Part shown: piece after piece, positions 26,100-55,248 of the stretch | Numbering within the stretch: the stretch's first letter is position 1 | Layout: every line of letters begins with the position of its first letter | Source: an uncultured delta proteobacterium | Lineage (GTDB): Bacteria > Myxococcota_A > Polyangia > Fen-1088 | NCBI GenBank assembly: GCA_963767925.1 | Contig: CAVYGB010000008.1 | Span: 832,001 to 896,000, forward strand | Reading direction: 5' to 3' | DNA: 64,000 nt | Program-made: the position numbers and the translations under genes | Notes under the pieces: generated by a model | Database searches by the model: none | Told to the model about the DNA's origin: nothing | The model's input: the letters and a program-made list of their open reading frames with translations, nothing else

Positions 26100-26867
26100 A
26101 TGCCATGGCTCACGCTGTCTCTTCGTCGCGGCCTGGTCATCGGGTTGGGACCTGGGCGCTTTCACGCCCTGGTGTGTCTCGCGCTGCTGTGCCCGGTTCA
26201 CGCGTGTGCAGGGCCGGCAGAGCTGGCGGCGCCGAAGGGGACGGAGACGTCGGCAAAGACGCCGGTGAGTCCGCCCACCACGAACCCGGGAAAGGCCCGA
26301 CAGCTGGTAGAAGCGATCATCAAGGTCAGCCAGTTACCGCGGTTGGATCGGGTGAAAGCCGCCGAGATCCTCGGTACCCGGCTGGGTGCCCAGAGGAACG
26401 CCACCGAGTACCGCATGGAATGGTCCCTCGAGCCCACGGAGCTGATCGCCGAGGGGACCGCTGTGGGAGTCCGCCGCAAAGCCTGGACGCTCCTGGAGAT
26501 CGTGCCTCACCCCTCTCTCGAGCTGGCCTTCGAGGACTTCGTGCCCTACCTCCTCGACGCGAGCTACACGTTGGACGCGCTAAGAGTCCACCTCGTCCAC
26601 GACTCGGTGGCCACGAGTATCACGCGCATCAGACACGTGTTCCGGATCGAAGGCGGCGAATTGACCATCGAAGTACCGACCACGGTGCCGCCCGAGACCC
26701 CCGACCAGGATTCGAAAGCCACAACCGAAGGCTGGGATGCAGCGAAGGGCAGAAGCTCCAGCCGGAGTCAGGTGATGACCGTCTTTTTCAACAACGAGCT
26801 CGGCAGAAGCTGGCGAAACCCGCGCACGCTCCGGCAGTTCCGTGAGCCTCGGAAGGCCCCCAACTGA
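26100..26867 (+). CDS. Exported hypothetical protein (candidate immunity partner)
   Basis: Hydrophobic leader with Cys; close homolog at 40456, distant homolog at 53588. Confidence 0.7.
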   Translation: MPWLTLSLRRGLVIGLGPGRFHALVCLALLCPVHACAGPAELAAPKGTETSAKTPVSPPTTNPGKARQLVEAIIKVSQLPRLDRVKAAEILGTRLGAQRNATEYRMEWSLEPTELIAEGTAVGVRRKAWTLLEIVPHPSLELAFEDFVPYLLDASYTLDALRVHLVHDSVATSITRIRHVFRIEGGELTIEVPTTVPPETPDQDSKATTEGWDAAKGRSSSRSQVMTVFFNNELGRSWRNPRTLRQFREPRKAPN

Positions 26868-26871
26868 CCGG

Positions 26872-27771
26872 TTACGGGTTGGAGCCGGGGTTGGCCTGGC
26901 GGTCGTCCCACTCTTTGCTGAGCTGCTGAGCAGCGAGCTGCTCCTTCGTGATGTAGGTGCCATCCGGGTTGATTCCGGCGGGCTCGCGCGACATGACCTC
27001 GGTCATCTCGGCCTTGGCCTGCTCTTCGGAGATCTCGCCACTCTTGTACCGCTCGTAGATGGCGATGTACTGGTCATCGAACGTCCCGCGGATGCCGATG
27101 TCCGGCCCGTCCTCGGTCTCGCCGTCGGTGTTCATGATCTCGTCGCGGGCGCGGGCGTTGTCGAAGGCGGCAGCACCCTCGTGCTCCATCGCCGGCTGCA
27201 CGTTCTTCGAGACGTATTCGCCCTTGGTGTCGGCGTCCACCCGCTCAGGGAAGGGCTTGGCTGCATGACCGATCTCGTGGGCCAGCAGAGAGGCGAGGTC
27301 GTGGCCGCCCTTGGCCAGGTCCTGCTCGTCGATGAAGATCCTCATCTTGTTCGGTTCGGCTTTCGATCCACTGCCGTACGGGACGACTTCGATCTCCCAG
27401 CCGTTGGCTTTTGCCTCGGCCCACTGCTGTCGCAGGGTCGGGCTGCGGTTGATGACGTCATCAATCTTTGCGCCCAGACCTGTCTTGACCGGCGGCGGCT
27501 CCGCGCTGGCCGGGGGTGCTGACGGCGGAGCTTCGACCTCCAGGGTGGTCGGCGTCTCGGGCGTGGGCTTCGCCGGCTGCGGGTTTCCACCACCACCGCC
27601 GCCGCCGAAGTAGGGTTGGTTGGTGGGGGGTGGGTCTACGCCGTCGAACGGCCAGATCGAGTCCGGGTCCGGCGCCTCGAGTGGCGCCTGCTCGATCACT
27701 TCTATGGAGACGAAGCTGCCATCTACCGGGAGTGGGGTGCCTTGACCAGTGATGGAGTTGATACCTGACAT
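26872..27771 (-). CDS. HEXXH zinc-metallopeptidase-like protein with Pro-rich N-terminus
   Basis: LAHEIGHA plus downstream EHEG; AGGAGG RBS. Confidence 0.75.
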   Translation of the reverse strand: MSGINSITGQGTPLPVDGSFVSIEVIEQAPLEAPDPDSIWPFDGVDPPPTNQPYFGGGGGGGNPQPAKPTPETPTTLEVEAPPSAPPASAEPPPVKTGLGAKIDDVINRSPTLRQQWAEAKANGWEIEVVPYGSGSKAEPNKMRIFIDEQDLAKGGHDLASLLAHEIGHAAKPFPERVDADTKGEYVSKNVQPAMEHEGAAAFDNARARDEIMNTDGETEDGPDIGIRGTFDDQYIAIYERYKSGEISEEQAKAEMTEVMSREPAGINPDGTYITKEQLAAQQLSKEWDDRQANPGSNP

Positions 27772-28764
27772 GCGAAGTCCTCCTGGATTCAACGGTCCAT
27801 TTCATGGCGAGCGAGGCCGGCTCGGCGAGAGTCAGGACATGTCCGTCGGCCACGGCTGGAGCTTGCTATGGGTTGCGCAGCAGTTTTGCAGCGCAACAAG
27901 CCACAGATACCATGGTCGGCTGCCATGGTGAAGAGAGACGCGCTCGCCTTCGTTGGAGGTTTTTCACGAGCCCCCACACGGCCGCGCGCAGGGCACGCAT
28001 CAGTTGGCTTACCTCGTGTGTCAGGCCCTGGCGAGGGTGGGCCGGTACGCCGCCTCGACCTCTATCCGGACAGCTGCGAAGCCACGGCGCCCTCGTGTTG
28101 CCGTCGAGCCCGCCAGGGCGCCGGCATCGGAGGCCTCGCCGCTGGCCGTGCACGAGGCGCAGGCGCACGTCGTGCCCGTCATCGCTGCCCGCTGGGCTGG
28201 CATCCCGGAGGTGGTTACCCACGGCGAGACCGGCTTCCTCCTCGACACGCGCGTCGCTCCGCTGCAGCCTCACGTGGCGACCACGACGTTTGGCGAGACC
28301 GACCGAACCCATTTCGATGCCACCTGCTCCGCCGCCGAGAAGGCCTGGGCCGGCCCAGCACCGTCTCGTCCGCTGGTCCACCTCGACGACGTGCTCGCGG
28401 CTCAGGCCGCCGGGACGCTGGAGCCAGGACACCGTTTGCGCATGGCTGACGAGCAGCCTCTGCCGTTGCTGACCCGAGGTTCCTACTCCGAGTCGTCCGC
28501 TCAGCTCTCCTGCGTGCTCGGTCTCTTCCAGAGCGGCGAGGTCGTCTCCGTTGTGGACGCGGCTGCCTCGGCGGCTGCCTTCGCGCGCGCCGCGACCCCT
28601 GCCTTTAGCGCCGGCCTGAAGGTGATCCACCCCGCGGCGAGATCGTGAGCCACCCGGGGTGGCGGGCGCCGTAGGGACGGCGGCGGGATCGTGATCCACC
28701 CCGGCCGAAGAGGGAGACCGGGACGGGACGCGGCAGGGAGACGGTAGTAGTGGTGGCGCCTGCG

Positions 28765-29205
28765 ATGAAGCAGGGAGCCCCGCGGAAGAGGTGCACGGAG
28801 TGCCGGCAGTGGTACACGCCGTGTGTACGGTCGGCCGATCGGCAGCGGACGTGCGGCGGGGGCGCGTGCCGGGCGCGGCGGCGACGCCGACTCGGACGGC
28901 AACGGCGGTGGCAGGACGTGCAGAGCGCGCGGGTGGCCGAGCGCGAGCGACAGCGACGGTGGCGGGCCGAGCGCCGCGCGCGAGCGATGGAGGAGAAGGA
29001 GGGGCCCCGGCCGCCATCTGAGGCCACCTGTCACGCGCCGGCTTCGGCCTCCATCAGCGGGGATTTGCGGGACAAAGTGCGCCAGTCCGTGGACATGGCG
29101 TTCGACTTGTCACGCGCCGCCTTCCTGCGCCTGGTGCCCAAAATTCTCGGGGATTTCATGCGATCCGCGGGGAAATCTGGGACAAAAAGTGGGCCGGGAG
29201 CGTGA
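28765..29205 (+). CDS. Small Cys-motif (Zn-finger-like) basic protein
   Basis: CTECRQWY...QRTCGGGAC followed by Arg-rich helix. Confidence 0.6.
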   Translation: MKQGAPRKRCTECRQWYTPCVRSADRQRTCGGGACRARRRRRLGRQRRWQDVQSARVAERERQRRWRAERRARAMEEKEGPRPPSEATCHAPASASISGDLRDKVRQSVDMAFDLSRAAFLRLVPKILGDFMRSAGKSGTKSGPGA

Positions 29206-29326
29206 CTGTCACGCGCCGGCTTTTCGTCGTATGCCCGCGGGACCATTGAGGATTCACCCGCGATCCTGGACAGGCTGTCACGCTCCGACCTTCGCCAACG
29301 CGGTCGTGACGTGGTTTGTGGAGGCC

Positions 29327-30280
29327 ATGGCAGCCGTCGTGGCCCCCGAAGAGCGCGCGGTCGCCCTCACCGCGCTCGGCGAGACCCACGGGCGCTTGCG
29401 CCTGCTGGACGCGGGGGCTGTCCGCCAGATGCGCGAGTCGCTCGAGCGCCACGGACAGCTGATGGCGGTCGCCGCGTACCGCCCCGGCGATGGCGGTGGC
29501 GGCCCCCTCGAGGTCGTGGACGGCTTCAAGCGGGTGCATGCCGCTCGTGGGCTCGGCTGGGGGGAGCTGCGGGTCCGCGTGCTGCCGGTGGACGCGGTGG
29601 AGGCGAAGGTGGCGATGGGGGTGCTCAATCACGGGCGCGGGCTGTCCGAGCTCGAGGAGGCGTGGCTGGTGCGCGCGCTGCACCGTGAGGACGCGCTGAC
29701 GCAGCCCCAGATCGGGCGGCTGCTGGGGCGGCACAAGAGCTGGGTGAGCCGGCGGTTGCTGCTGGCCGAGGGGCTGGACGAGGCGGTGCAGGCGGACGTC
29801 CGGCTGGGCCTCGTCGCCGCGAGCACGGCGACGGCGGTGGCGCGGTTGCCCCGGTGCAACCAGCTCGCGGCGGCGGAGGCGGTGATGCGCAGGGGGCTCA
29901 CCAGGCACCAGACCGAGCGCCTCATCACCGAGGTGCTGGCGCGGCCAGCGGCCGAGCGCGAGCTGGCCCTGTGCGAATCCGCCGAGCGCTTCCCCCTGCT
30001 CGGCGATGGCCCGGCGACCGGCAGACGCCACGGCAGCGAGCGGACGCCCGCGCAGTCGTTGATGGCGGACATCGGGACCCTGGCGCGGATCGCGGCCCGC
30101 GTGCAGGCGCGGCTGTGGGAGCGTCCGCTGTCGGCGCTGGGCGAGCCGGCCGCGCGCCTGGTCGCCGATGGGCTCGCGGGGCTCGATCCGGTGCTCACCG
30201 CGCTCAGCCGGACGATCGCGCGCGCCGTGACCGCAGACCCACGGGCCCAGGGACATGTGGAAGACGCGCCCCGAGCTTGA
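29327..30280 (+). CDS. ParB/Srx N-terminal domain protein with HTH
   Basis: SLERHGQL, VVDGFKRV.AA, LTQPQIGRLLGRHKSWVSRRL; GGAGG RBS. Confidence 0.85.
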   Translation: MAAVVAPEERAVALTALGETHGRLRLLDAGAVRQMRESLERHGQLMAVAAYRPGDGGGGPLEVVDGFKRVHAARGLGWGELRVRVLPVDAVEAKVAMGVLNHGRGLSELEEAWLVRALHREDALTQPQIGRLLGRHKSWVSRRLLLAEGLDEAVQADVRLGLVAASTATAVARLPRCNQLAAAEAVMRRGLTRHQTERLITEVLARPAAERELALCESAERFPLLGDGPATGRRHGSERTPAQSLMADIGTLARIAARVQARLWERPLSALGEPAARLVADGLAGLDPVLTALSRTIARAVTADPRAQGHVEDAPRA

Positions 30281-31880
30281 GCACCAGGTGGTGACCCTGG
30301 CGGGCCAAGGCCTCGCGCGGCGAGCGATCGCCCGCGCGATGGGCGTCAGCCGCAACACCGTGCGGAAGATCCTGGATGCGCACGTCGAGTCCCGGCAGGC
30401 GCCACACGCGGCGCTCACGCCTGCGCCCGCGCGGGTCCCGCGCGCGCAGAAGCTCGACGACTTTCGCGGCAAGGTCACGGATCTGCTGACCCGGTTTCCC
30501 GACATCACGGCGCAGAGGATCTTCGAAGAGCTGCGCGTGGCGGGTTACGACGGCGGCTACACGCAGATCAAGGTGCACGTCGGGCGGGTGCGGCCACTTC
30601 CGCCGCCGAAGCCGAGCCTGTCGACGCCGATCTACGGCCCGGGCGAGATGGCCGAGAGCGACTGGTCGCCGTACGTGATCGACTTCCTGAACGGGCGGCG
30701 TGCGAAGGTGCAGGCGCTGTCGTACGTGCTGGTGTGGAGCCGCCGCAAGCGCTTCCAGGTGTACGACCGCAGCGATCTGTACGCGCTGATGGACGGGCAC
30801 GTCGAGATCTTCGAGCGCCTGGACGGCGCGGCGGCGAGGTGCAAATACGACAGCCAGAAGCCGGTGGTGCTCGGGTGGGAGGGGCAGCAGCCTATCTACA
30901 ACCCGCGCTACCTCGCGTTCGCCGCGCACTACGAGTTCGCGCCGGTGGCCGTCCGCCGCAGGCACCCCAACGACAAGCCCCGGACGGAGCGGAGCCTGTG
31001 GGAGTTCGAGCAGAGCTTCCTCAACGGACGCCGCTTCCGCGACCTCGCGGACATGCGCGCCCAGCTCGCCGCCTGGAACGACGGTATCTGCGATCAACGC
31101 CGCCGATCGGCGGGCCGGCCCACGCCGCTCGAGCGCTACGCGGAGGAGCGGCCACACTTGCGGCGCTTGCCCGCGCACCCGTACGACGCGGCCAGGGTGC
31201 TCTACCGGGTCTGCAGCATCGACGGCTTCGTCTCGGTCGACGGCAATCGCTACGCCGTCCCATACGAGCACGTCACCGACATCCTGCCGGTGCGGGTGAC
31301 CCAGCACGAGCTCTTCATCTACGCCGCCGACCTCGCGCTCGTCGCACGCCACGAGCTCGCGCCCCGAGGCGCCGGCCACGACATCGTGCCCCCGGGCGTG
31401 CACAAGCCCCCGAGTCGTGGAGGCGCCGACCTCGACCAGCTCCAGATCGCCTTCACGCGGATGGGCGAGGACGCCGCGCTCTTCTTCGCTGGGCTGCACA
31501 CGGCACAGCAGCGCCAGGCCGGTTATCACGCCAGGCAGATCCTGCTGCTGCGCGAGCGATACGCCACCGCCGATCTCGCGGCGGCGCTCCGACACGCCCA
31601 CGCCTACGGCGCCTTCGAGTGCCGCGCCATCGAGCGGATCCTCGCCGCGCGCGCGGCCCCGCGCCGGCTGGCGGAGTATGTCGCCGAGGAGACGGTCCGC
31701 CGCCTCGACGAGCCCGCCGGCGACAGCTTCCTCCGCGACCTCGACGAGTACGACCGCCTCCCCGGAGCGGGGAGCCTCAAGGAGCCCCCATGCCCAAGCC
31801 CGGACGCCACAAGCCCCAGCCCACAGGCGCCGACTCCGTCATCGACCGACTCCGCCGACACCTCGAAGTCCTCGGCCTGA
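30255..31880 (+). CDS. istA: IS21-family transposase
   Basis: HTH GVSRNTVRK, PGEMAESDW, KYDSQK, KPRTER, DGNRYAVP. Confidence 0.9.
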   Translation: MWKTRPELEHQVVTLAGQGLARRAIARAMGVSRNTVRKILDAHVESRQAPHAALTPAPARVPRAQKLDDFRGKVTDLLTRFPDITAQRIFEELRVAGYDGGYTQIKVHVGRVRPLPPPKPSLSTPIYGPGEMAESDWSPYVIDFLNGRRAKVQALSYVLVWSRRKRFQVYDRSDLYALMDGHVEIFERLDGAAARCKYDSQKPVVLGWEGQQPIYNPRYLAFAAHYEFAPVAVRRRHPNDKPRTERSLWEFEQSFLNGRRFRDLADMRAQLAAWNDGICDQRRRSAGRPTPLERYAEERPHLRRLPAHPYDAARVLYRVCSIDGFVSVDGNRYAVPYEHVTDILPVRVTQHELFIYAADLALVARHELAPRGAGHDIVPPGVHKPPSRGGADLDQLQIAFTRMGEDAALFFAGLHTAQQRQAGYHARQILLLRERYATADLAAALRHAHAYGAFECRAIERILAARAAPRRLAEYVAEETVRRLDEPAGDSFLRDLDEYDRLPGAGSLKEPPCPSPDATSPSPQAPTPSSTDSADTSKSSA

Positions 31881-32650
31881 ACCACACCGCCGAAAAGCTG
31901 GACGACCACCTCGCCTGGGCCCTGCGCGACAAGCCCGGCGCCGCCGCCCTGCTCGACCGCGTCCTCGGCGCCGAGGCCGGCTTCAAGCTCGAGCGCCGGA
32001 TCGAGCGCCGGATCGGTCTGAGCGGCCTGCCCGAGCGCAAGACCCTGGAGGCATTCGAGTGGGCCTTCCAGCCCGAGCTCGACAAGTCCCTGGTGATGGA
32101 ACTCGGCGACCTTGAATTCGTCCGCCGCCACGAGGACCTGGTCGTCACAGGCAACAGCGGCACCGGAAAGAGCCACATCATCCAAGCCCTCGGACTGCGC
32201 GCCTGCCAGCAACAGCTGTCGGTGCGCTACGCCCGCTGCGTGGATCTGCTCGACGACCTCTACGCGGGGCTCGCTGATGCCACGTACCCGCAGCGCCTCA
32301 AGCGCTGGGCCGCCCCGGATCTCCTGATCGTGGACGACGTAGGGCTCGGCCAGGTCCGCAAGCGCGAGGACGAGCCGACCGCCGCCCACACCCTCTTCAA
32401 CCTGATCGATCGTCGACACGGCCGCGCCTCGACCGCCTTCACCTCCAACATCAAGCTCTCCGCCTGGGGCCGTTACCTCGGCGACGCCACGCTGGCGATG
32501 TCCATCCTCGACCGCCTCGCGATGCACGCCATCCGCCTCGACATCACGGGGCCCAGCTACCGCCAGCACGTCGCTGACCAACGGGCCAAGAAGCGCGGCG
32601 CCAAGCTCCCCGTCGACGAGCCCGAGTCCAGCGACGCCGTCGCCCCATAG
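31790..32650 (+). CDS. istB: IS21 helper ATPase
   Basis: GNSGTGKSH, LLIVDDVG, ILDRL, GPSYR. Confidence 0.92.
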   Translation: MPKPGRHKPQPTGADSVIDRLRRHLEVLGLNHTAEKLDDHLAWALRDKPGAAALLDRVLGAEAGFKLERRIERRIGLSGLPERKTLEAFEWAFQPELDKSLVMELGDLEFVRRHEDLVVTGNSGTGKSHIIQALGLRACQQQLSVRYARCVDLLDDLYAGLADATYPQRLKRWAAPDLLIVDDVGLGQVRKREDEPTAAHTLFNLIDRRHGRASTAFTSNIKLSAWGRYLGDATLAMSILDRLAMHAIRLDITGPSYRQHVADQRAKKRGAKLPVDEPESSDAVAP

Positions 32651-33293
32651 AGCGCCCCCCGCCCCGGGGCGCCCTCCCCACCTCGCAGATAGCAGCCCGA
32701 TCCGCTCCCCGGCCGCGCATCCCCAGCGCGGCTGGGCGCCGCGCATTGGGCGTGCGCGAGCCGTGGGGCCCGCCACCGCCCCCGGGCGCCGCCGCCTCAG
32801 GTGGATCACGATCCCGCCGCCCTGGCGTCGCCCCCTGCAACCGCGGGTGGATCACCCTCGCTGCCCGGAGTGGATCACATCTAACCCGCCGCTGAAGCCC
32901 CTGCCGAGTTCGGCGGCGAGACTGATCTGGCGATCTCCTCGCTCTTGCTCGTCCGCCTGCTGAACGCCGGCGTGTTGGAGCTCGATTGCGAGCCGACTTG
33001 GGCCTCTTCGCCGTGCGCGCGCCCCTTTGCTTCCTGTGGTCAGCTAGATCAGGCTGTCCCAGCTAGCCCCAGACAGCCCGCCATGTGGCGGTTCCGGCTG
33101 CCGGTCGGTGCTCGATTCGCCGCCGGCGTCCGGCCTGGCCGGTGAACCGGCCTTCCGGTGCACCGTGAGGACTCTCGACCGAGCGCTGGCAGGGCAAGTC
33201 GGTGACGGTGCGGGACATCATCTGCCGTACGCTGGTCGTGGGCCCGAATGGGCCGTTGTTCTCGTCCGAGCCAACGTAGCGGTTCGACTCGAT

Positions 33294-33695
33294 TCACCAC
33301 CGCTCGAATGTGAGGCCGGGAATCCTTGGGAAGCTCCGCATGTCGCGAGTGGCGACCTGGAACCCAATGACCAAAGCCGTGACGGCGATCTGCAGGTCGT
33401 GAACAGCTATCGTCCTGCCCACGGGGAGCAGCATCGCCCGCATCCGAGCGTATTCGCGCGCGATGGCGGCATCGAAGTTCACGACCGGCAGCCGGGTCAG
33501 GTAATTCTCGAGAAAAGCGCGGCGCTTTTCCGCGCGGGTGGGGGTGTCGGCTCGCTCGACGCCCTCGTAGAGCTCGGCGACGGTTATGGCGGCTACGCGA
33601 AGCTGCTCCTCTCCGCGCACCGACAGGGCCGCCTCCAGGTCCAGCTGCCCGCGTTCCGCCGCGATGATGATGCTGGAATCGATCAGCGTTCCCAA
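33294..33695 (-). CDS. PIN-domain (VapC-like) toxin
   Basis: LIDSS, TVAEL, DLQIA.TAL, ATRD..F. Confidence 0.88.
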   Translation of the reverse strand: MGTLIDSSIIIAAERGQLDLEAALSVRGEEQLRVAAITVAELYEGVERADTPTRAEKRRAFLENYLTRLPVVNFDAAIAREYARMRAMLLPVGRTIAVHDLQIAVTALVIGFQVATRDMRSFPRIPGLTFERW

Positions 33696-33919
33696 GGCGA
33701 GGATTCGTCGGCGATCGACGGTTGAGAACGGTAGGCTTTTTCGACGTCGTCAGCCCAGCCCGGGTCGGGGTGAGGCACGCTCTTCCACAGCGCGAGAAGG
33801 TCAGCCCCGGTGAACGAAGGCGCAGGTCTGGTAAGCTCGACGGCGAGTTCGTTCCTCTCCGCGGGCGTGAGGTCGGCGGCCTCCTCGAGGAGCTTTTGAA
33901 GGCGTGCGCTGCGGGGCAT
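33683..33919 (-). CDS. Putative antitoxin
   Basis: 78-aa ORF upstream of and overlapping the PIN gene. Confidence 0.65.
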   Translation of the reverse strand: MPRSARLQKLLEEAADLTPAERNELAVELTRPAPSFTGADLLALWKSVPHPDPGWADDVEKAYRSQPSIADESSPWER

Positions 33920-34025: not shown

Positions 34026-34425
34026 TCCGGTCGCTGCGACCGGAGGCCCCGGAGGTGACGAAGGAGCTGAGGCACTTCGGGAAACGCAGCCCGTATCACG
34101 GCGGGAGCTCGAGCGGGTAGGGTTTTGGGCCATGGCCGCCCGAAAGTCCGAGTACGACGCAAGGAGAACGTTGGACTCCGGGGCTTGCTGAGCCTCGCGC
34201 TGCTTGAGGTCATGCGCGCAGGCAGCGGGATCGTTTCAGCACCGGCGAGATAGGTGACGTTGCTTGATCAGCGAGCGCCGGATTGAACCTCGCGTCGCAC
34301 GTGCACAGAGCACTTGTCCCTGCCCAACCCCGCGAGATAGCAAGCGTTCTCGATGGCTGGGGACAAACTCTGTGACCGCCTCTCGCGCAACCTAAGGTAA
34401 CTACTAACGATTTCTCCACCCACGC
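34026..34425. repeat. Type A right-end segment (also 52848-53244; partial 63156-63275)
   Basis: ~400 bp closely similar segments directly upstream of att copies. Confidence 0.85.
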
Positions 34426-34483
34426 CCAGATTCAGGTTCTGGTGATCGAAAGATTGTGGGAGTTCGATTCTCCCCGACCGCAC
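34426..34483 (+). repeat. att repeat: tRNA-Leu 3' part, copy 2
   Basis: Identical to the tRNA from CCAGATTCAGG to GACCGCAC. Confidence 0.95.
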
Positions 34484-34675: not shown

Positions 34676-35863
34676 TCAGCGCGCCGTGGGGGAAGGAGAG
34701 GGCGACCCCCCGCCTGATCCCCCACCAGATCCCCCACTTGGGGGTTCTGCCAGGGCCACGAGCTGCGCAATCCTCCCCACCGCCGCCAGCTTCTCCTCCC
34801 GCCCGACGTGGCTGTAGTGCTCGGTCATCGCCTCTGTCACGTGCCCGGTCATGCTGCGCGTGACGATCTCTCCGTTCAGCTGCCGGCTGAGGTTGTTGAA
34901 GGTCCTCCGGAGCCCGTGCGTGGTCACCCGCTTCCAGACCCTCGCCACCCGCAACGCCCTGGCCAGCGGAAACCGCAACACGTCCTTCGGAAGGATCCGC
35001 CCGGCCTCGTCCGTGAACACCCAGCCCGAAGCCAGCCCCGGGTGCTGGCAGGCCAGCATCCGGGCGCGGTGTTCCCGCATCACCCAGGCGAGCAGCGCCG
35101 CGAGCGGCACCGATCGCTTCGTGTCCGTCTTCGTGGTCGAGACGTTCCCCTCCCACTGCGCCCGCCTGACCCGGATGAGCCCGGCAGCCTCGTCGATGTC
35201 CTCCCACCTGAGCGCCGTCGCCTCGCCGTACCGCATGCCCGTGAAGGCAAGCGTCAGCACGAACGGGTAGAGATCCGGGATCTGATCCCGGAAGACGATC
35301 AGCACCCGCGCCAACTCCTCACCGGTGAGGAGGTTCGGCTCCTCGTCGGTGAACGCCCGCACCGGTAGCTTCTTCACCCGGGCCGCCGGGTTGTGGGGCA
35401 GCTCGTACTCGACCACCGCATCCGCCAGCACCATCCTCAGCATCACCACCGCGCCGTTCACGGTCGCCGCCTTGTGAGAAGCGGCCAGCCGGGTATGCCA
35501 CTCCCGGACCTCGGCGTGGGTGAGCTTGTCGAGGAAGAAGTCCCCGAGCACAGGGAGGACCTGCCCCCCGAGCACGTCAGCGTACGTTCTTGCCGTTGAC
35601 GGCTTGAGCCCCGCGGCCTTTGATCTCAGCCACGATTGCACGTAGTCCCGCAGCCTCGGAGCCTCCTTTGCGACCCTTTCGGCGAACCTGATCTCCTCGC
35701 GCCACTGCTCTCGCAGCTTGGCTGCTTCTTCGACGGTCGCTGTGACCGTCCGGTCTACCTCCTTCATCCGTCCTGTTCTTGGGTCGACGGCGCGGAGCCG
35801 GATCCTTTTCCGGCCGTCTGACATGGCTTCGATCCCCGGATAGCGCGTCTGCTTCCTTCTCAT
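34676..35863 (-). CDS. Tyrosine recombinase/integrase
   Basis: TGMRYGE, TK, HGLRR, TGH, EHY catalytic residues; N-terminal arm-binding region. Confidence 0.92.
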   Translation of the reverse strand: MRRKQTRYPGIEAMSDGRKRIRLRAVDPRTGRMKEVDRTVTATVEEAAKLREQWREEIRFAERVAKEAPRLRDYVQSWLRSKAAGLKPSTARTYADVLGGQVLPVLGDFFLDKLTHAEVREWHTRLAASHKAATVNGAVVMLRMVLADAVVEYELPHNPAARVKKLPVRAFTDEEPNLLTGEELARVLIVFRDQIPDLYPFVLTLAFTGMRYGEATALRWEDIDEAAGLIRVRRAQWEGNVSTTKTDTKRSVPLAALLAWVMREHRARMLACQHPGLASGWVFTDEAGRILPKDVLRFPLARALRVARVWKRVTTHGLRRTFNNLSRQLNGEIVTRSMTGHVTEAMTEHYSHVGREEKLAAVGRIAQLVALAEPPSGGSGGGSGGGSPSPSPTAR

Positions 35864-36149
35864 CGTGCACTCCATCCGAGGCCATGGGAGCGCCATGGCC
35901 GCGTATCATAGCGTCCAGGTCCTCGGGCCTGAAGAGCATCGTGCGGCCCCGGCGACCGGCGGGGCGCAGGCGGCCGGCGGCGACGTGGTTGCGGATGGCG
36001 GAGGGGGCGCGGTAGTGGAGGTACGCGGCTGCCTGCGCGGTGGTGAGGTAGGGGGACCACGCGACGTGGGTCTGGTCAGCGGTTCGATTTCCGAGCGTGG
36101 ACACGGTGATCCACCGATCGGGGTCATGGGACGAAAAGTTTCCGCTCAC
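35577..36149 (-). CDS. Excisionase-like HTH protein (3' end overlaps int)
   Basis: YLTTAQAAAYL...IRNHVAAGRL..GR..LFRPEDLD. Confidence 0.7.
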   Translation of the reverse strand: MSGNFSSHDPDRWITVSTLGNRTADQTHVAWSPYLTTAQAAAYLHYRAPSAIRNHVAAGRLRPAGRRGRTMLFRPEDLDAMIRGHGAPMASDGVHDEKEADALSGDRSHVRRPEKDPAPRRRPKNRTDEGGRPDGHSDRRRSSQAARAVARGDQVRRKGRKGGSEAAGLRAIVAEIKGRGAQAVNGKNVR

Positions 36150-38278: not shown

Positions 38279-38395
38279 CGGCCGCCGTCACGACGCGGTT
38301 TCGGTTCGCAGGGCGGAAAGCGAGCACCGCCACGTCGTTGTGTCTAGCCCATTTGTCGTCGCGCTCGAAGAAACTTGGCTTCACCGAGGCTCCCC

Positions 38396-39169
38396 GTGAT
38401 TTGTCCGAGCTCTAGCCCAGCGCGAATCCGTCGGTTCCGGCCGCGGAGCGTGCGGCACGTGTCCATCGCCGGTGTGGTCCACGAGGGAGTGACGCTCTTT
38501 CACCTGTTAGGGCGACGGGCGCTTCTCGACGACAGCGCAGAAGTCGTCGCCGATCGCTTCATGCGCGGAATCACCCACCTGCTACGCAGCTTTCGTCCCG
38601 ACTTTTTCTACGTTGGCGGCGGCATGTCGGAGGCGGCTGCGGTCCGCGCCGCCATCGCTCGATGGGCCTCCTCGCCGATCGTCCTGTCCCGGGGGGGACG
38701 GTTCGTGGGAGAAGCGGGCGGCCTCAACATCGCGGGACCGTCAGCGGTGATCATCGACGTGGGCCAGACCGCCATCAAGGTCAGCCGCGGCGGTTTGCGC
38801 CGGGTTCACGATCGCCCGCCCGCGGATCGGGAGCCCGATGGCTACGACGCGGCGGGCGTATCCTTCATCAAAGAGGTCATCGCGTCCGAGCTGAGAGCCG
38901 CGGCGGCGGGATCGCCGGCCGTGCTGGCGGTGCCCGGCGACGTGGGCGACGGCCTCACGCCCGGAATCTCGAACTACCGCTGGCAGGGGCGCGCGGACGC
39001 GATCGTTGGGTTGCTTCCGCCCGATGACGGCGATCGCGAGGTCTTGGTGCTCAATGATGCCGAGCTCGCTGCAGAGTCGGCGCGGCTGGAGGTGAATCGC
39101 GTGCTCGGAAGGCGCTGCTTCGTCTTGACGCTTGGACACGCGCCCGGCGGAGCCTTGCTGTCGCTATGA
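38396..39169 (+). CDS. Permuted ROK-like protein, copy 2
   Basis: Highly similar to 24012-24785. Confidence 0.7.
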   Translation: MICPSSSPARIRRFRPRSVRHVSIAGVVHEGVTLFHLLGRRALLDDSAEVVADRFMRGITHLLRSFRPDFFYVGGGMSEAAAVRAAIARWASSPIVLSRGGRFVGEAGGLNIAGPSAVIIDVGQTAIKVSRGGLRRVHDRPPADREPDGYDAAGVSFIKEVIASELRAAAAGSPAVLAVPGDVGDGLTPGISNYRWQGRADAIVGLLPPDDGDREVLVLNDAELAAESARLEVNRVLGRRCFVLTLGHAPGGALLSL

Positions 39170-40104
39170 GCGCCACCAGCACCCCGGCGGGAGGAGCCCT
39201 CGGCGGCTCCCGGCCCCTTGGCAGCGTGAGCGTCATAGCCTTGACCTGCAATCAACCGGAGGCGCTCACATTACTGCTCGCGGCGCTGGGCGAGCAGGTC
39301 GATCCGCCGCCATTCGAGGTGGTGGTCACCGACGATGGATCGAGCTGCGACAACGCGCGCATCGTGACCCTGGCAGCGGCGGAGCACGGTCTCGAAATCG
39401 GTTACGTGTGGCAGCCCGACCGTGGATTCCGAGCGGCCCGCGCCCGCAACAACGGCATCCGCCGGGCGCGCGGGGACCTGCTGATCTTCCTCGACGGTGA
39501 CATCGTGGTGCCCCCCACCTTGCTGCGATCGCACTTCGTCCGGCACGACGGCAGCAAGAAGGTCGTCTGTGGCCGTCGCCGGCACGTACCTTCAGGGGCC
39601 TGCCATCTCGGTCGATACGACCAGCACCTGCTGCGCGCCCTCGCGGAAAGGAGCCAGAGTGCCGATCCCGCGCAGGCCTACTGGAGCGAGGGGCCCCATC
39701 CCTGGATGGCGCTCATCAGCTTTGCCTTCAGCGCGCCCCGGGACAGCGACTTGCTGTTCGACGAGGAGATGGAGGGATGGGGAAGCGAGGATCGCGAGCT
39801 CGCCCTGCGCCTTCATCGACGGCACGGCTATGATTTCGTTCTGCCGGCCGACCTGGACCCCGTCTTTCACCTCCTCGCACCCGGCTTCACCGTCCACCAC
39901 GAGAGAATCGTGAGTGGAATCAAGAACAAGCTCTACCTCGTCGCGAGACACGGCCTCGAGGCCGTCGCCCCGGCCCTCGAGGTGATGCGCGCATGGAGGG
40001 TCGACCCGACCACAGACCGGTGGACGTCAATCAATCAGCGACGACCCGAGCCGCTCGACCAGCTCCTGGCCGAGGCCCGCGACTGGCTGGCCCGCCACGG
40101 GTGA
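39166..40104 (+). CDS. GT2 glycosyltransferase, copy 2
   Basis: Highly similar to 24782-25720. Confidence 0.9.
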   Translation: MSATSTPAGGALGGSRPLGSVSVIALTCNQPEALTLLLAALGEQVDPPPFEVVVTDDGSSCDNARIVTLAAAEHGLEIGYVWQPDRGFRAARARNNGIRRARGDLLIFLDGDIVVPPTLLRSHFVRHDGSKKVVCGRRRHVPSGACHLGRYDQHLLRALAERSQSADPAQAYWSEGPHPWMALISFAFSAPRDSDLLFDEEMEGWGSEDRELALRLHRRHGYDFVLPADLDPVFHLLAPGFTVHHERIVSGIKNKLYLVARHGLEAVAPALEVMRAWRVDPTTDRWTSINQRRPEPLDQLLAEARDWLARHG

Positions 40105-40455
40105 CGCCGGCGACCCGCTCCCCGCTCACGCGCCGACAGCGCTTTGCACGCCGGCCGCGGCCGCCACCGATTGCCCGTGAGGGGCGTTCAGATGGCGCGC
40201 CCGTCACCGCACCAGCCAGACAGAGAGCGTCCGGGGTGGGCGTTCGGGCTGGGGCGCGAAGGGGCTCCGCGGGGCGGCATTCCACGCGCCTTTAGCGACC
40301 TCGCCTGCTGGCGATTGGGATCCGTTGCTACGGACGGACCGTTGCGCGTAATGGGACTACTGGTGCCCGCCCGCGGCCGGGAGGCCGAGCTCCGACGCCG
40401 CTACGCGAACTGACCCGGCTGGCAGGCCAGCGGCGCCGGGGTTATTGTCCCGGCC

Positions 40456-41223
40456 ATGCCATGGCTCACGCTGTCTCTTCGTCGCCGCCTGGTCACCGGG
40501 TTCGGACCTGGGCGCTTTCCCGCCTTGGTGTGTCTCGCGCTGCTGTGCCCGGTTCACGCGTGTGCAGGGCCGGCAGAGCTGGCGGCGCCGAAGGGGACGG
40601 AGACGTCGGCAAAGACGCCGGTGAGTCCGCCCACCACGAACCCGGAAAAGGCCCGACAGCTGGTAGAAGCGATCATCAAGGTCAGCCAGCTACCGCGGTT
40701 GGACCGGGCGAAAGCCGCCGAGATCCTCGGTACCCGGCTGGGTGCCCAGAGGAACGCCACCGAGTACCGCATGGAATGGTCCCTCGAGCCCACGCCGCTG
40801 ATCGCGGAGGGGACCGCCGTGGGAGGCCGCCGCACGGGCTGGACGCTCGTGGAGATCGTGCCTCACCCCTCTCTCGATCTGGCCTTCGAGGACCTCGTGC
40901 CCCACCTGCTCGACGCGAGCTACACGTTGGACGCGCGAAGAGTCCACCTCGTCCACGACTCGGTGGCCACGAGCATCACGCGCATCAGACACGTGTTCCG
41001 GATCGAAGGCGGCGAATTGACCATCGAAGTACCGACCACGGTGCCGCCCGAGACCCCCGACCAGGAATCGAAAGCCATGGGCGAAGGCTGGGATGCAGCG
41101 AAAGGCAAAAGCGCCAGCCGGAGTCAGGTGATGACCGTCTACTTCAACAACGAGCTCGGCAGAAGCTGGCGAAACCCGCGCGCGCTCCGGCAGTTTCGGG
41201 AGCCTCGGAAGGCACCCAACTGA
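40456..41223 (+). CDS. Exported hypothetical protein (candidate immunity partner), copy 2
   Basis: Highly similar to 26100-26867. Confidence 0.7.
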   Translation: MPWLTLSLRRRLVTGFGPGRFPALVCLALLCPVHACAGPAELAAPKGTETSAKTPVSPPTTNPEKARQLVEAIIKVSQLPRLDRAKAAEILGTRLGAQRNATEYRMEWSLEPTPLIAEGTAVGGRRTGWTLVEIVPHPSLDLAFEDLVPHLLDASYTLDARRVHLVHDSVATSITRIRHVFRIEGGELTIEVPTTVPPETPDQESKAMGEGWDAAKGKSASRSQVMTVYFNNELGRSWRNPRALRQFREPRKAPN

Positions 41224-41227
41224 CCGG

Positions 41228-42130
41228 TTACGGGTTGGAGCCTGAGTTGGCCTGGCGGTCGTCCCACTCTTTGCTGAGCTGCTGAGCAGCGAACTGCTGC
41301 TTGGTGATGTAGGTGCCATCCGGGTTGATTCCGGCGGGCTCGCGCGACATGACCTCGGTCATCTCGGCTTTGGCCTGCGCTTCGGAGATCTCGCCACTCT
41401 TGTACCGCTCGTAGATGGCGATGTATTCGTCGTCGAATTTCCCCCGGATGCCGACGTCCGGCCCGTCCTCGGTCGCGCCGTCGGTGTACATGATCTCGTC
41501 GCGGGCGCGGGCGTTCTCGAAGGCGGCCGCACCCTCGTGCTCCATCAGCGGCTGCACGTTCTTCGAGACGTATTCGCTCTTGGTGTCGTAGTCCACCCGC
41601 TCAGGGAAGGGCGTGGCTGCATGACCGATCTCGTGGGCCAGCAGAGAGGCGAGGTCGTGGCCGCCCTTGGCCAGGTCCTGCTCGTCGATGTAGATCTTCT
41701 TCTCGTTCGGGTCGGCTTCCGATCCGCTGCCGTACGGGACGATCTTGATCTCCCAGTTGTTGGCTTTTGCCTCGGCCCACTGCTGTCGCAGGGTCGGGCT
41801 GCGGTTGATGACGTCATCAATCTTTGCGCCCAGACCTGTCTTGACCGGCGGCGGCTCCGCGCTGGCCGGGGGTGCTGGCGGCGGAGCTTCGACCTCCGGG
41901 GTGGTCGGCGTCTGGGACGTGGGGTTCGCCGGCTGTGGGTTTCCACCACCACCGCCGCCGCCCCCGAAGTAGGGGTGGTTCGTGGCGGGTGGGTCCACGC
42001 CGTCGACGTGCCAGATCGAGTCCGGGTCCGGCGCCTCGAGTGGCGCCTGCTCGATCACTTCTATGGAGACGAAGCTGCCATCTACCGGGAGTGGGGTGCC
42101 TTGACCAGTGACGGAGTTGATACCTGACAT
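41228..42130 (-). CDS. HEXXH metallopeptidase-like protein, copy 2
   Basis: LAHEIGHA; highly similar to 26872-27771. Confidence 0.75.
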   Translation of the reverse strand: MSGINSVTGQGTPLPVDGSFVSIEVIEQAPLEAPDPDSIWHVDGVDPPATNHPYFGGGGGGGGNPQPANPTSQTPTTPEVEAPPPAPPASAEPPPVKTGLGAKIDDVINRSPTLRQQWAEAKANNWEIKIVPYGSGSEADPNEKKIYIDEQDLAKGGHDLASLLAHEIGHAATPFPERVDYDTKSEYVSKNVQPLMEHEGAAAFENARARDEIMYTDGATEDGPDVGIRGKFDDEYIAIYERYKSGEISEAQAKAEMTEVMSREPAGINPDGTYITKQQFAAQQLSKEWDDRQANSGSNP

Positions 42131-42429
42131 GCGAAGTTCTCCTGGAAATTAACCACCTGTACAGAGTTGTCGGCGCGCGTTTGCAGTGTTGCCAAAATTC
42201 GTCTCGGCTGCGTGAGCGTTCATGGTTGGATCGACGAAGGTGCGGGTTCGTCGACCGCAGCCGGGCGAGTTTCGGCGGGACGCGTCAGAGTCCGTGGGGC
42301 AACTTTCCTTCCTTCTAACGCGATGATGGCGGAACTGCACGGGTCGATGGCCGCGACGTCAGCACGCTGGGCCCCGGCGCTGTACTGGCTCCTGGCCGGC
42401 AAGCCCAGCGGCTCTCGGGCCCGCGACCC

Positions 42430-44871: not shown

Positions 44872-44929
44872 AGATTCAGGTTCTGGTGATCGAAAGATTG
44901 TGGGAGTTCGATTCTCCCCGACCGCACCA
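44872..44929 (+). repeat. att repeat: tRNA-Leu 3' part, copy 3 (ends CCA)
   Basis: Identical to the tRNA from AGATTCAGG to ACCGCACC. Confidence 0.95.
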
Positions 44930-44957
44930 CAGAGATCAGCTAGTTAGAGCTGGTCTC

Positions 44958-52304: not shown

Positions 52305-53244
52305 GCAGTCGTCCAGCCGCGCCTCCACCACGCATCGTCACCCTCGTGCTGCCCGCGCTCGGCCCGCGCGAGGCCGGGGCGCTCATCGACTGCCTCGAGC
52401 AGCTCCAGGGTGAGCTGTGGCAGGTCTACCGCGAGGCGATCCTCCAGCCCGAGCCCGATCCCGACGTCGCTGAGGATCCCGCCTCGAACAGCGATCCCCC
52501 GTCGTACGATCCGGACGACTCGCTCTTCTGATCGACCGCCGAGCGGGCGCCGTCTGTCTCGGGATCCGCCTCGAGCCGCGCCCCGGGAGGGGGGGCACGC
52601 CTCCCCGGCCGACCCTCCGCCATCCGCGTGCCCCCCTTGAGATCGCCCTGGCGCCCTCGCGGCCCCACTACAGGCTTTCGCCTCGCCACGGACCTACCAG
52701 GCAACTTCCGGCCCAATCAGGTCGCGCCGGGCACCCAAAGCGATTCCCTGTCGGGCCCGAAATCGGCGTCACCGCGCGATCCGCCTCTCCGTCACCCGAG
52801 GCGATTTCGGCCGCCGTGCCGGGGGAGGATTTCACTGCCACCAGCAGTCGGTCGCTGCGACCGGAGGCCCGGGAGGTGACGAAGGAGCCGAGGCACTTCG
52901 GGAAACGCAGCCCGTATGACGGCGGGAACTCGGGCGGGTGGGGTTTTGGCGCGATGGCCGCACGAAAGTTTGAGTACGGCGCAAAGGAGAACGTTGGCCT
53001 CCGGGGCTTGCTGAGCCTCGCGCTGCTTGAAGTCATGCGCAGGCAGCGGGATCGTTTCAGCACCGCCGAGATAGGTGACGTTGCTTGATCAGCGAGCGCC
53101 GGATTGAACCTCGCGTCGCACGTGCACAGAGCACTTGTCCCCGCCCAACCCCGCGAGACAGCAAGCGTTCTCGATGGCTGGGGACAAACTCTGTAACAGC
53201 CTCTCTCACAACCTAGGTAACTACTCACGATTCGCCTCACCCGC

Positions 53245-53304
53245 CCAGATTCAGGTGCTGGTGATCGAAAGATTGTGGGAGTTCGATTCTCCCCGACCGC
53301 ACCC
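53245..53304 (+). repeat. att repeat: tRNA-Leu 3' part, copy 4 (one mismatch)
   Basis: CCAGATTCAGGTGCTGG...GACCGCACCC. Confidence 0.95.
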
Positions 53305-53587
53305 AGATACCCCTGAAATTCCCAGCTCTTCTTGCGCTTCCGACGTTCTGGATCTCGTAGGGGTTCTTGGCGGGGACAAGCGGGGACAAACCGGCGCCCG
53401 CCTTTTCGGCGTTTTCCCCGGTATTTCCGCGCACGCGCCAGAATGGTGTTCTGGTGCGTTTTCTGACGCGAACTATGGGTTGGTCGCCCACGGCAGCGCC
53501 CCGACTTCCATAGTTTGTGTGGCCGTTCCGACGAGCGGGTTTCGATCTTCCCTCCGGTCGCCAGGCTTTACTTCGGCCGCACGAGGG

Positions 53588-54337
53588 TCATTTCGACCGA
53601 CGCTGGTGACGCTCCCGGTACTCTCGGAGGGTCGGTGTTTTCTGCCAATCCTGACTGAGCTCGGTGCCGACGTAGATCTTGCTGATGAGGCCGCGCGGGG
53701 CGCTCTTTCCCTTCGCCACCTCGTATGCAATCTCCGTGGCCTTGCGGTCGCGGTCCGGGGTGTCCTTCGCAAGGGTCACCGGGATCTCGATGGTTAGCTC
53801 TCCGGCGGAAACCCTGAACCGATATAGAGACCTGTGCATCTGCTTGGCCAGGCTGTCCTCGTGGACATGGACCCAGACGTTCTCCAGCGCGAACGGGAGA
53901 TCGAGCAGCTGGGGCGCCAGGTCTTCGAATGCGAGATAGAGCGAAGGCTGGGGGTCGAACCAAAGGGTTTGCCATACCTGGTCCTTGCCGGCCCGTATGG
54001 TAGCTCCCTCGGAAATGGCTTCCGTCGGCGCCAGCGGCCATTCGACGCGGTATTCGTGCACCTGGTCCTTCGGACCCAGGCCGGAACCGAGCAATGCGGC
54101 TGCCTTTTCGAAATCCAGCGGCGACAGACGCGAAACCTTCATTAGCTGTTGGATCAGCTTCTCGACCTTCGCTTCGGGCCTCGGGACGAGCGCTCCGTTC
54201 GGCTCCTTCGCCGGGGATGCTCCAGCGGCCGACGCCGCAAGGCCTGCGCAGCAACAGACGAGCAGCCCAAGCCGCTCCGCCTGGGATCGTCGGAAAGACG
54301 ATGCTCGGGATGTGGCGCCAAACACTTGGAGACTCAC
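53588..54337 (-). CDS. Exported hypothetical protein (candidate immunity partner), divergent paralog
   Basis: Signal-like leader; shares KVS.L..LD..KAA, EY..EW.L.PT, PSL.LAFED, GELTIE with the 26100 protein. Confidence 0.7.
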   Translation of the reverse strand: MSLQVFGATSRASSFRRSQAERLGLLVCCCAGLAASAAGASPAKEPNGALVPRPEAKVEKLIQQLMKVSRLSPLDFEKAAALLGSGLGPKDQVHEYRVEWPLAPTEAISEGATIRAGKDQVWQTLWFDPQPSLYLAFEDLAPQLLDLPFALENVWVHVHEDSLAKQMHRSLYRFRVSAGELTIEIPVTLAKDTPDRDRKATEIAYEVAKGKSAPRGLISKIYVGTELSQDWQKTPTLREYRERHQRRSK

Positions 54338-55248
54338 TGCTTGTGCCTTTCGTCGAAGTCCTCGCGGTGCTTCTCCAGAAAGACCTCCTCGGTGGTCTTG
54401 TAGCTCCCATCGGCATTGCGGCCTCTCGGCTCCTGACCAGCCCAGAAGGCCATCTCTGCAATGGCCTCGTCGACGGTAAGAATGTCACCGCTTTTCCATC
54501 GCTCGTAGATCTTGATGTATTCGTCGTCGAACCCTCCGCGAATCCCGATGTCCGGGCCCATGCCAGGACTTGGGGAATTCCTGATCTCGTCTCTTGCCCT
54601 GGCGTTGGTGAAGGCAGCCCCGGCTTCTCCCCAAATCTCCGTTCGGGTGGCGTTCGTTGCGTAGCCTTCGCGATCACCGATGTCTACGGGCGCGCGACCT
54701 GGCCCTCTGACGGCGTGGTCTATCTCGTGGCTGGCGAGCGAGGAGAGCTCGGCCGGAGTCAGGACATGCCCATCGACCAAGGACTTCGGATTGATATAGA
54801 TGACTTTGTCTGGCGGCCCGTGATGGGTCTCATTCGGTCCGTTCCGAAACTCGATGTGATAGCCCTTTTCCTTGGCCTTCGCCCACAGCTCGCGCATGGT
54901 GGGACTCTTGTTCAGGATCTCGTCGACCTCCTTGCCCAGGCCGGACACGATGGGGGGCGCGAGGCGCGGTTTCTCGGGCTTCGCCGGTGCGGCAACCGGA
55001 ACGGGCGGCCGTTCCGGTTGCGGACCGGACGGCCCACCTCCACCAACTATCACGGTCTCTCCGCCCAAGGGCGCCACCGCCAACCGTTGCGGGGGAGGCG
55101 GCTCCTCGATGATATCGATGCTCTGGGGTGTGCCCGGGCCGAGGGGATCAGTTGGGGCGTCGGGGTCCACGTCCGGGCCGCCGGCGGTTCCGACATCGGC
55201 TGAAGGAGTGCTCACGCCTCGACCGGTGATGCTGTTGAAGCTCGTCAT
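54334..55248 (-). CDS. HEXXH metallopeptidase-like protein, divergent paralog
   Basis: SHEIDHA, GLG..D..LN.SPT, NARARDEI, GPDIGIRG; AGGAG RBS; GTGA-coupled to partner. Confidence 0.75.
   Translation of the reverse strand: MTSFNSITGRGVSTPSADVGTAGGPDVDPDAPTDPLGPGTPQSIDIIEEPPPPQRLAVAPLGGETVIVGGGGPSGPQPERPPVPVAAPAKPEKPRLAPPIVSGLGKEVDEILNKSPTMRELWAKAKEKGYHIEFRNGPNETHHGPPDKVIYINPKSLVDGHVLTPAELSSLASHEIDHAVRGPGRAPVDIGDREGYATNATRTEIWGEAGAAFTNARARDEIRNSPSPGMGPDIGIRGGFDDEYIKIYERWKSGDILTVDEAIAEMAFWAGQEPRGRNADGSYKTTEEVFLEKHREDFDERHKQ

Follow-up and report, generated by a model that had tools for sequence, protein, structure and literature searches.

Candidate zinc metallopeptidase effectors and exported partner proteins on stacked tRNA-Leu islands of an uncultured delta proteobacterium

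Why does a single stretch of bacterial DNA hold three related genes for proteins with an HEXXH motif, each beside a gene for an exported protein of one and the same family? The stretch in question, below called the window, comprises 64,000 nucleotides from an uncultured delta proteobacterium (assembly GCA_963767925.1, contig CAVYGB010000008.1, positions 832,001 to 896,000). The original prediction, which was made from its sequence alone, took the paired genes for secretion-system effectors with cognate periplasmic immunity proteins, carried on excisable cassettes. The computational analysis reported here leads to a reading of the same kind, which we regard as probable, short of strong confidence: the HEXXH proteins would be secreted effectors with cognate exported immunity partners, encoded on integrase islands. 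An effector function of the HEXXH proteins is very likely, and the partners are reasonably likely, on the evidence of sequence, to be immunity proteins.

The longest open reading frames (ORFs) of the three HEXXH genes extend over 26872-27792, 41228-42130 and 54334-55551, all on the minus strand, and the likely starts are ATG 27771, ATG 42130 and ATG 55248, the last of which has AGGAGAG just upstream (Table 1). Their translations bear out the architecture described before: all three proteins start with M-x-x-x-N-S-[IV]-T-G-x-G, which is followed by a stretch rich in Pro and Gly, and their C-terminal domain has the motif HEIGH or HEIDH and a downstream glutamate. The three neighbouring genes encode members of one exported family with signal peptides, read by eye from the alignment, with an n-region rich in Arg, a hydrophobic core and a cleavage site of the AxA type (ACA/ASA|x). 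The junctions, too, are as previously described. In pairs 1 and 2 the two genes converge, with 4 nt between them (TGA-CCGG-TTA), and the genes of pair 3 are arranged in tandem with a 4-nt stop/start overlap (GTGA). Thus, the toxin gene touches the partner gene in all three cases, in two orientations. When the ORFs of all six frames of the window were searched with a hidden Markov model (HMM) of the toxin domain, exactly these three places were found, and a partner HMM found the three partner genes, an orphan fragment and nothing else. This fragment, which had been noted earlier, is real and is 75% identical to partner 3. All three pairs predicted are present, yet only two of them are independent: pairs 1 and 2 lie within the two copies of one segmental duplication, a module of 3.8 kb with 92.8% nucleotide identity between the copies (self-blastn), and therefore count once.

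Searches of Pfam, NCBIfam and PDB sequences with the six window proteins found nothing, and what the HEXXH domain is was seen from its relatives. A word-indexed sequence search retrieved only 20 relatives of the toxin. When 1.84 billion representatives were searched with a family profile built from 20 homologs, 882 representative clusters came up at E ≤ 1e-3, of which 640 reached E ≤ 1e-10 and 157 reached E ≤ 1e-30. An initial contig scan with a toxin alignment (A1) gave 596 pattern matches, none of which was confirmed as a relative. Fusions were counted on the best 150 of the 882 representatives, all of which were scanned against Pfam, and the profile that ranked them derives from the window's own clade. 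A delivery module was present on 44 of the 150: VgrG on 12 (8 with Phage_GPD and 4 apparent fragments), RHS on 5, PAAR_motif on 10, Tox-PAAR-like on 3, XVIPCD on 2 and WXG100 on 12. Outside the 150, in P0025, the toxin domain is joined to an X-Tfes_XVIPCD secretion signal (E = 5e-29). These recurring fusions to different delivery modules mark the HEXXH domain as a polymorphic-toxin module, used with type VI secretion (T6SS), the type IV secretion system of the X-T4SS class, Rhs proteins and systems of the type VII (T7SS) type. The assignment of the window proteins to an effector class was thereby upheld.

Two kinds of relatives differ from these in their attachments. Annexin repeats, which are unusual in bacteria, are fused to the domain in two representatives (P0149 and P0152) and hint at membrane- or eukaryote-directed versions. 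Five others (P0055, P0056, P0064, P0072 and P0077) open with a Flp-prepilin-like hydrophobic segment, 'GLSTVEY'. Their matches to Flp_Fap and DUF4244 are sub-threshold (E = 0.0014-0.17), four of the five cluster in the tree, and they may be toxins that are exported or processed via a Tad-type pilus pathway.

The catalytic motif is well conserved. H166, E167, H170 and E199 (numbering of HEXXH 2, P0002) are invariant in 20 of 20 aligned homologs, and the H, E, H and downstream E are also kept in an alignment of 59 sequences. The HEXXH...E pattern is that of an intact gluzincin-type zinc site, which is predicted to be catalytic. AlphaFold2 modelled residues 90-297 with a predicted local distance difference test score (pLDDT) above 90 and residues 1-89 with a pLDDT below 50, in agreement with the unstructured N-terminus that had been postulated. 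With the toxin model as query, Foldseek found nothing in the PDB at E ≤ 1e-3, and every one of its weak best matches is a zincin (M48, ArdC, selecase, lethal factor, ZMPSTE24 and IrrE; E ≥ 0.027, TM-scores 0.2-0.5). Profile searches of the PDB with alignments A1 and A3 gave only HEXXH-local matches (E ≥ 0.2), and look-ups in the ESM Atlas were uninformative (best 0.90 for the partner and 0.88 for the toxin), with DUF6782 as a lead at 0.86. This family ('Putative metallopeptidase family') is the sole Pfam family that touches the superfamily, and it does so marginally: it is matched by 23 of the 150 best relatives, in 6 cases at or above the 27-bit cut-off, and by 18 of the 59 aligned members at E ≤ 0.01. 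The three window proteins have no DUF6782 match at E ≤ 1. A full-text literature search for 'DUF6782' found nothing, and the family is uncharacterised.

The genomic setting of the pairs suggests how they may move. The last 62-63 nt of a tRNA-Leu gene are repeated at 97-98% identity (self-blastn), and these copies, at three positions, divide the region into stacked islands, of which islands 1, 2 and 4 hold the pairs. The cassettes that had been proposed are thus bounded by copies of the 63-nt tRNA-Leu 3' end, and integrases are present. Direct repeats of a tRNA 3' end together with tyrosine integrases identify them as tRNA-targeted integrative islands, the excision of which is predicted.

A comparison of the islands sheds light on the relation between toxin and partner. 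In the two copies of the 3.8-kb module, the HEXXH proteins are 89% identical and the partners 91%. Pair 3 is much further removed from pairs 1/2, with 40% identity between the toxin domains and 42% between the partners. Between these pair types, dN is 0.56 for the toxin versus 0.60 for the partner, and dS is 1.44 versus 1.38. By these estimates, pair 3 is old, and its toxin and partner have diverged equally from those of pairs 1/2. The toxin and partner ORFs are intact, and their third codon positions are G+C-rich as is typical for coding sequence here. Islands 1 and 4 have common flanks (23386-23685 matches 53242-53530, 23687-23958 matches 53868-54139, and 27853-28111 matches 55289-55549; self-blastn), and 28118-28603 and 32899-33028 match parts of the glycosyltransferase gene GT1 of island 4 (self-blastn). 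From the common flanks it follows that island 1 once was pair-3-like, with att, partner, HEXXH gene and GT1. As reconstructed from these matches, the 3.8-kb module took the place of a pair-3-like HEXXH gene of island 1 and of the 5' half of the adjoining partner gene, leaving the orphan fragment behind, and the splitting of GT1 of island 1 by a transposon is the later event. The displacement of one pair by another, with a partner remnant left in place, is the usual behaviour of polymorphic toxin loci (see also PMC3482391). Read in this way, the linkage of toxin and partner is seen twice, in two gene orders, and a third time as a remnant. It is because of the adjacency in two orientations, the equal divergence, the export and the orphan remnant that we infer an immunity function for the partner.

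The partner family is uncharacterised and very rare: five relatives were found, all from the 'jgi' source, and the close toxin homologs with a short N-terminus (7) are similarly rare and of the same source. What usually accompanies the toxin domain was studied in more distant relatives, i.e., in 35 genome loci with 2001 ORFs that were retrieved by a contig scan with an alignment of the XVIPCD group (A5) and that come from Xanthomonas, Stenotrophomonas, Erwinia, Winslowiella, Sphingomonas, Rhizobacter, Rhizobium, Nocardia and Burkholderiaceae. In 29 of the 35 loci, the toxin gene is abutted by a gene for an exported protein of ~200 aa of a different family. Of the 24 loci of the Xanthomonas/Stenotrophomonas type, 23 have a gene for a 199-aa lipoprotein, which ends ~30 nt upstream of the toxin gene, and a gene for an exported protein of ~170-190 aa overlaps the toxin gene's 3' end in 6 of the 11 others. 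Neither neighbour was found in six loci, i.e., the four of Nocardia, L034, and L018, where the contig does not reach into the upstream region. The lipoprotein and the ~170-190-aa family are probably related to each other, since hhalign aligned them with 81.6% probability (E = 1.1e-5) over 121 columns of the mature region. Thus, an exported neighbour of ~200 aa is the rule for this toxin domain, which argues for a target in the envelope, and the window partner fits this rule in size, location and position. As an observation in its own right, one exported family of ~170-200 aa appears to occur both upstream of the toxin gene in X-T4SS contexts and downstream of it in VgrG and other contexts (L001-L029 and L033), and it looks like a conserved, unnamed immunity family. 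An HMM of the 199-aa lipoprotein family matched no ORF of the window. When the window partner was compared with the other immunity-like families, a merged profile gave a score of 86%, which was rejected because it came from aligned signal peptides; the mature regions scored only 14.7% (E = 0.0018, 42 columns), with reversed controls at E = 0.11 and 0.24. The residual similarity, in the first ~45 mature residues, is at most a lead.

How the HEXXH proteins might leave the cell may depend on their N-terminal region, and here the clade of the window stands apart. In a quickly computed maximum-likelihood tree, with 159 sequences of the domain that are 150 residues or longer (SH-aLRT support, midpoint root), the three window proteins fall in a clade of 42 rows with a support of 100 and a stem length of 0.68. 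The clade comprises 15 proteins labelled 'short N-terminus', 17 labelled 'long N-terminus' and 7 unlabelled ones; three long-N proteins lie outside. HEXXH 1/2 and HEXXH 3 fall in different sub-clades. None of the 50 rows labelled VgrG, RHS, PAAR, XVIPCD, WXG100 or Flp is within the clade, a contrast that has to be read with the fact that the 150 proteins are the best matches to a profile built from this very clade. Several short N-terminal motifs are common within it, i.e., NS[IV]TGxG at residues 5-11, an IExIE-like patch, EAPDPDSxW and DGVDxP. The short, long and WXG100-type N-termini showed no relation in hhalign, and a search with residues 1-60 found the query alone. Perhaps, this clade has swapped every known delivery module for a disordered N-terminus with the motifs NS[IV]TGxG, IExIE and DGVDxP that is the signal of an export route new to polymorphic toxins (Tad/Kil-like or atypical type III secretion-like), and the partner is a new immunity fold that replaces the exported immunity-like family of the T4SS/T6SS contexts; we consider this combination doubtful.

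Taken together, the following mechanism would account for the locus. The three HEXXH genes would encode secreted antibacterial effectors with a C-terminal, gluzincin-type zinc metallopeptidase toxin domain of ~200 residues, which belongs to a large, uncharacterised superfamily touching DUF6782. The disordered N-terminal region of ~90 residues with its NS[IV]TGxG motif presumably directs export by a system encoded outside the window. The data show the toxin domain's homology and its modular fusions, the intact catalytic motif, a confidently predicted fold, the partner's export signal, the adjacency in two orientations and the replacement of one module by another. Toxicity, an envelope target, binding by the partner, immunity and the secretion route are what we infer beyond this: the toxin most likely would cleave a protein or peptide of the envelope or periplasm in bacteria nearby, and the adjacent exported partner most likely would bind and block it there, protecting the producer and its kin. 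The pairs would travel on integrase islands stacked at the tRNA-Leu gene and be exchanged as modules.

Several observations weigh against this interpretation. No known trafficking domain or signal peptide was detected on the HEXXH proteins (Pfam, NCBIfam), and the 64-kb window contains no secretion-system genes. The original prediction had anticipated that homologous domains elsewhere would neighbour the same partner, an expectation that failed for the distant homologs: the partner HMM matched none of the 2001 ORFs in the 35 loci, even at E ≤ 10, and hhalign gave 2.5% and 0.04% for the window partner against the two other immunity-like families. The AlphaFold2 model of the partner was unusable (mean pLDDT 34). 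When the two module copies are compared, the toxin has a dN/dS of 0.81 and the partner one of 0.62, as against 0.37 for the co-duplicated glycosyltransferase gene GT2 and 0.22 for the 257-aa gene, values that may reflect an arms race between toxin and partner but could equally reflect relaxed constraint. Furthermore, the convergent order of pairs 1/2, which is unusual for effector-immunity pairs, means that toxin and partner are not co-transcribed, and the partner may in these pairs belong to the operon of the upstream GT2 gene. A complex prediction with toxin residues 92-300 and partner residues 40-255 scored 0.08 against a mark of 0.32, which speaks neither for nor against binding.

The main rival explanation builds on this gene order. 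It accepts the HEXXH proteins as secreted toxins and regards the exported neighbour as island cargo of another function, e.g., an envelope protein that goes with GT2, in which case immunity would be provided elsewhere or not be needed. The partners of pairs 1/2 are indeed on the same strand as the 257-aa gene and GT2, downstream of both and convergent to the toxin, and the lack of any detectable relation to the exported family that flanks the toxin in 29 of 35 other loci also speaks for this explanation. Yet, the adjacency is kept in the second pair, in the opposite order, with a GTGA overlap and no GT2 beside it, at 40% identity between the toxin domains; both families are confined to these places in the window and have diverged to the same extent; and the site at which a toxin-partner pair was displaced is precisely that of the orphan fragment. 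We therefore consider unrelated cargo improbable. Of slightly lower probability still is the idea that the HEXXH proteins serve as effectors or exoproteases against prey, hosts or substrates outside the cell, not against sibling bacteria, with the partner as a periplasmic inhibitor or chaperone that guards the producer only during passage of the protease. The two relatives with annexin repeats, the likeness of the N-terminus to the unstructured signals of injection systems, and the absence of all antibacterial delivery modules from the window's clade would fit such a role. The broader family, on the other hand, is dominated by interbacterial modules (T6SS, X-T4SS, Rhs and WXG100), each with an adjacent exported neighbour, and diverged pairs with orphan partner remnants are a signature of kin discrimination.

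That the HEXXH proteins might not be secreted at all, and be intracellular regulatory metalloproteases of mobile elements that cleave an element's repressor in the manner of ImmA/IrrE, was considered as well, given that the genes reside on integrase islands, that IrrE is among the weak PDB matches, and that weak Peptidase_M78 matches were found in P0100, P0158 and P0136 and in 3 of the 59 aligned members. This explanation is very improbable: the window proteins have no M78 match even at E ≤ 1, their neighbour is an exported protein and no helix-turn-helix repressor gene is adjacent, and the same domain is fused to VgrG, PAAR, RHS and XVIPCD modules.

The interpretation as effectors with immunity partners can be set beside systems already described. 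The closest functional analogue is the C-terminal metallopeptidase domain of VgrG2b with its immunity protein PA0261, an analogy that concerns the proposed roles. VgrG2b of the H2-T6SS of Pseudomonas aeruginosa, classed as DUF4157, acts in the periplasm and is neutralised by an adjacently encoded protein (PMC6899460). Like VgrG2b, the window proteins appear to be HEXXH zinc metallopeptidase toxins, and, as described for VgrG2b (PMC6899460), the toxin family occurs as evolved VgrG, as PAAR extension and as stand-alone cargo, with modules reshuffled by recombination. Unlike VgrG2b, the window proteins carry no T6SS module. DUF4157 (PF13699) was not matched at Pfam scan thresholds, the sole trace being in P0077 (E = 0.12); VgrG2b is absent among the fold matches listed, and no PDB chain was matched at E ≤ 0.1 by either profile.

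Among actual relatives, the closest are proteins from Xanthomonas and Stenotrophomonas that bear an XVIPCD and look like X-Tfe effectors with X-Tfi-like lipoproteins encoded upstream. P0025, P0101 and P0105 share with the X-Tfe proteins a C-terminal XVIPCD (E = 5e-29 to 9e-31), and the upstream lipoprotein gene in 23 of the 24 loci mentioned above recalls the X-Tfi proteins (PMC6759196). In the same paper, XAC0096 is given as a putative HExxH metallopeptidase X-Tfe with an XVIPCD at residues 506-646. The window proteins differ in having no XVIPCD and in the C-terminal, not N-terminal, position of their toxin domain, and the window partner, unlike X-Tfi, has no detectable relation to the 199-aa lipoprotein. 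Among polymorphic toxins, zincin domains have been named Tox-MPTase1-5, HopH1-like and PVC-metallopeptidase (Zhang et al., 2012; PMC3482391), and, like those, the HExxH domain studied here occurs C-terminally on polymorphic toxins of the RHS, T6SS or T7SS type. No Pfam model named Tox-MPTase was matched in any scan, a result that covers such of these families as have a Pfam model, and the domain may yet be identical with Tox-MPTase1. T6EC12, a HExxH T6SS effector whose expression is toxic to both E. coli and yeast (bioRxiv 10.64898/2026.09.28.754971), was considered and set aside, as its spacing is different (HELSH, D312, E341); it was compared by description only.

The window as a whole has a G+C content of 68%. 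Its first part (1-23.3 kb) is filled by core genes, identified in the Pfam scan, for L25, PRPP synthase, UxaC, MoaC, the ATP synthase a subunit and YchF, together with an M61 peptidase, Amt and an FHA-GAF cyclase. From the tRNA-Leu gene to the window's end, the DNA is mobile and holds IS21 IstB genes, an IS5-family element, a Mu-type transposase with a ParB-like gene, and several glycosyltransferases. A search of plasmids for the IS element gave no match better than 66-75%, and these matches were spread over many genera. The features that bear on the pairs are listed in Table 1.

Table 1. Toxin-partner pairs, repeats and mobility features in the window (positions from its first nucleotide)
Feature	Position	Strand	Basis and remarks
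HEXXH 1, putative effector: disordered N-terminus and C-terminal zincin toxin domain	26872..27771	-	translation; domain HMM E = 3e-94
HEXXH 2 (P0002), putative effector, reference for alignments and model	41228..42130	-	
HEXXH 3, putative effector, 304 aa from ATG 55248	54334..55248	-	divergent from GT1 55299-56987 (+)
Partner 1, putative immunity protein, Sec-type signal peptide	26100..26867	+	partner HMM E = 1.6e-139
Partner 2, exported, putative immunity protein	40456..41223	+	translation, partner HMM
Partner 3, exported	53588..54337	-	GTG start overlaps HEXXH 3 stop (GTGA)
Orphan internal fragment of partner-3-type gene	23671..23967	-	tblastn: 75% identity to P0006 residues 64-162
Module copy 1 (3.8 kb): unknown 257-aa gene 24012-24785 (+), GT2 24782-25720 (+), partner 1, HEXXH 1	23968..27787		self-blastn, Pfam
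Module copy 2 (3.8 kb)	38355..42146		self-blastn
5' remnant of GT1 glycosyltransferase	27953..28648	+	self-blastn, Pfam; 3' end at 32899-33028
tRNA-Leu(CAG), integration site, left border of island array	23363..23448	+	ARAGORN
att-like copy of tRNA-Leu 3' end, 98%	34422..34483	+	self-blastn; adjoins integrase 34676-35896 (-)
att-like copy of tRNA-Leu 3' end, 98%	44872..44933	+	self-blastn; then integrase 3' fragment 44940-45123
att-like copy of tRNA-Leu 3' end, 97%	53247..53307	+	self-blastn; left border of pair-3 island
Tyrosine integrase	34676..35896	-	Phage_integrase, Pfam
Tyrosine integrase	59623..60846		Phage_integrase, Pfam

The array of tandem tRNA-Leu integrative islands spans 23363-63288, and contains a longer shared stretch, in which 34028-34483 matches 52849-53302 and is partly repeated at 63154-63288. 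A perfect palindrome of 32 nt (59474-59505) is found just upstream of the second integrase gene, and an imperfect self-complementary stretch of 173 nt (34493-34665, 73%) lies between the att copy and the first. Just past the latter gene, still within the array, ARAGORN called a tRNA-Asp(GTC) at 36716-36805, which, at 90 nt, is unusually long. Toxin-antitoxin genes are also among the cargo, i.e., a PIN toxin with a small upstream gene (33294-33919), a UPF0175 antitoxin-like gene (37534-37806), and a TacA-like antitoxin with a GNAT acetyltransferase toxin (62170-63072). Beyond the right end of module copy 2 lie a gene with an FGE-sulfatase domain (42430-43308, minus strand) and an unknown gene of 427 aa (43308-44591, minus strand), both without a counterpart beside copy 1. 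The transposon-like insert that splits GT1, an intact paralog of which is found in island 4, covers 28622-32899 and contains a ParB-like gene (28823-30280), a Mu-type transposase gene (30255-31880) and an unknown ORF of 401 aa (31604-32809, minus strand); an inverted match of 80 nt (28622-28700 versus 32878-32800, 79%) may mark its ends.

The locus thus presents a fairly ordinary bacterial weapon-and-shield pair, with the partner probably as the antidote, and it is an example of how one such pair takes the place of another on islands stacked at tRNA-Leu; current concepts are not overturned. If the interpretation as effectors with exported immunity partners is true, its relevance would lie in the family to which the toxin belongs. 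It would give a name and a testable function to at least 882 clusters of metallopeptidase toxins that are without a proper Pfam model, and one toxin family would then serve T6SS, X-T4SS, Rhs and WXG100/T7SS-type systems, with an exported neighbour as the rule for the domain, pointing to a target in the envelope. Moreover, it would single out a clade with an uncharacterised delivery signal.

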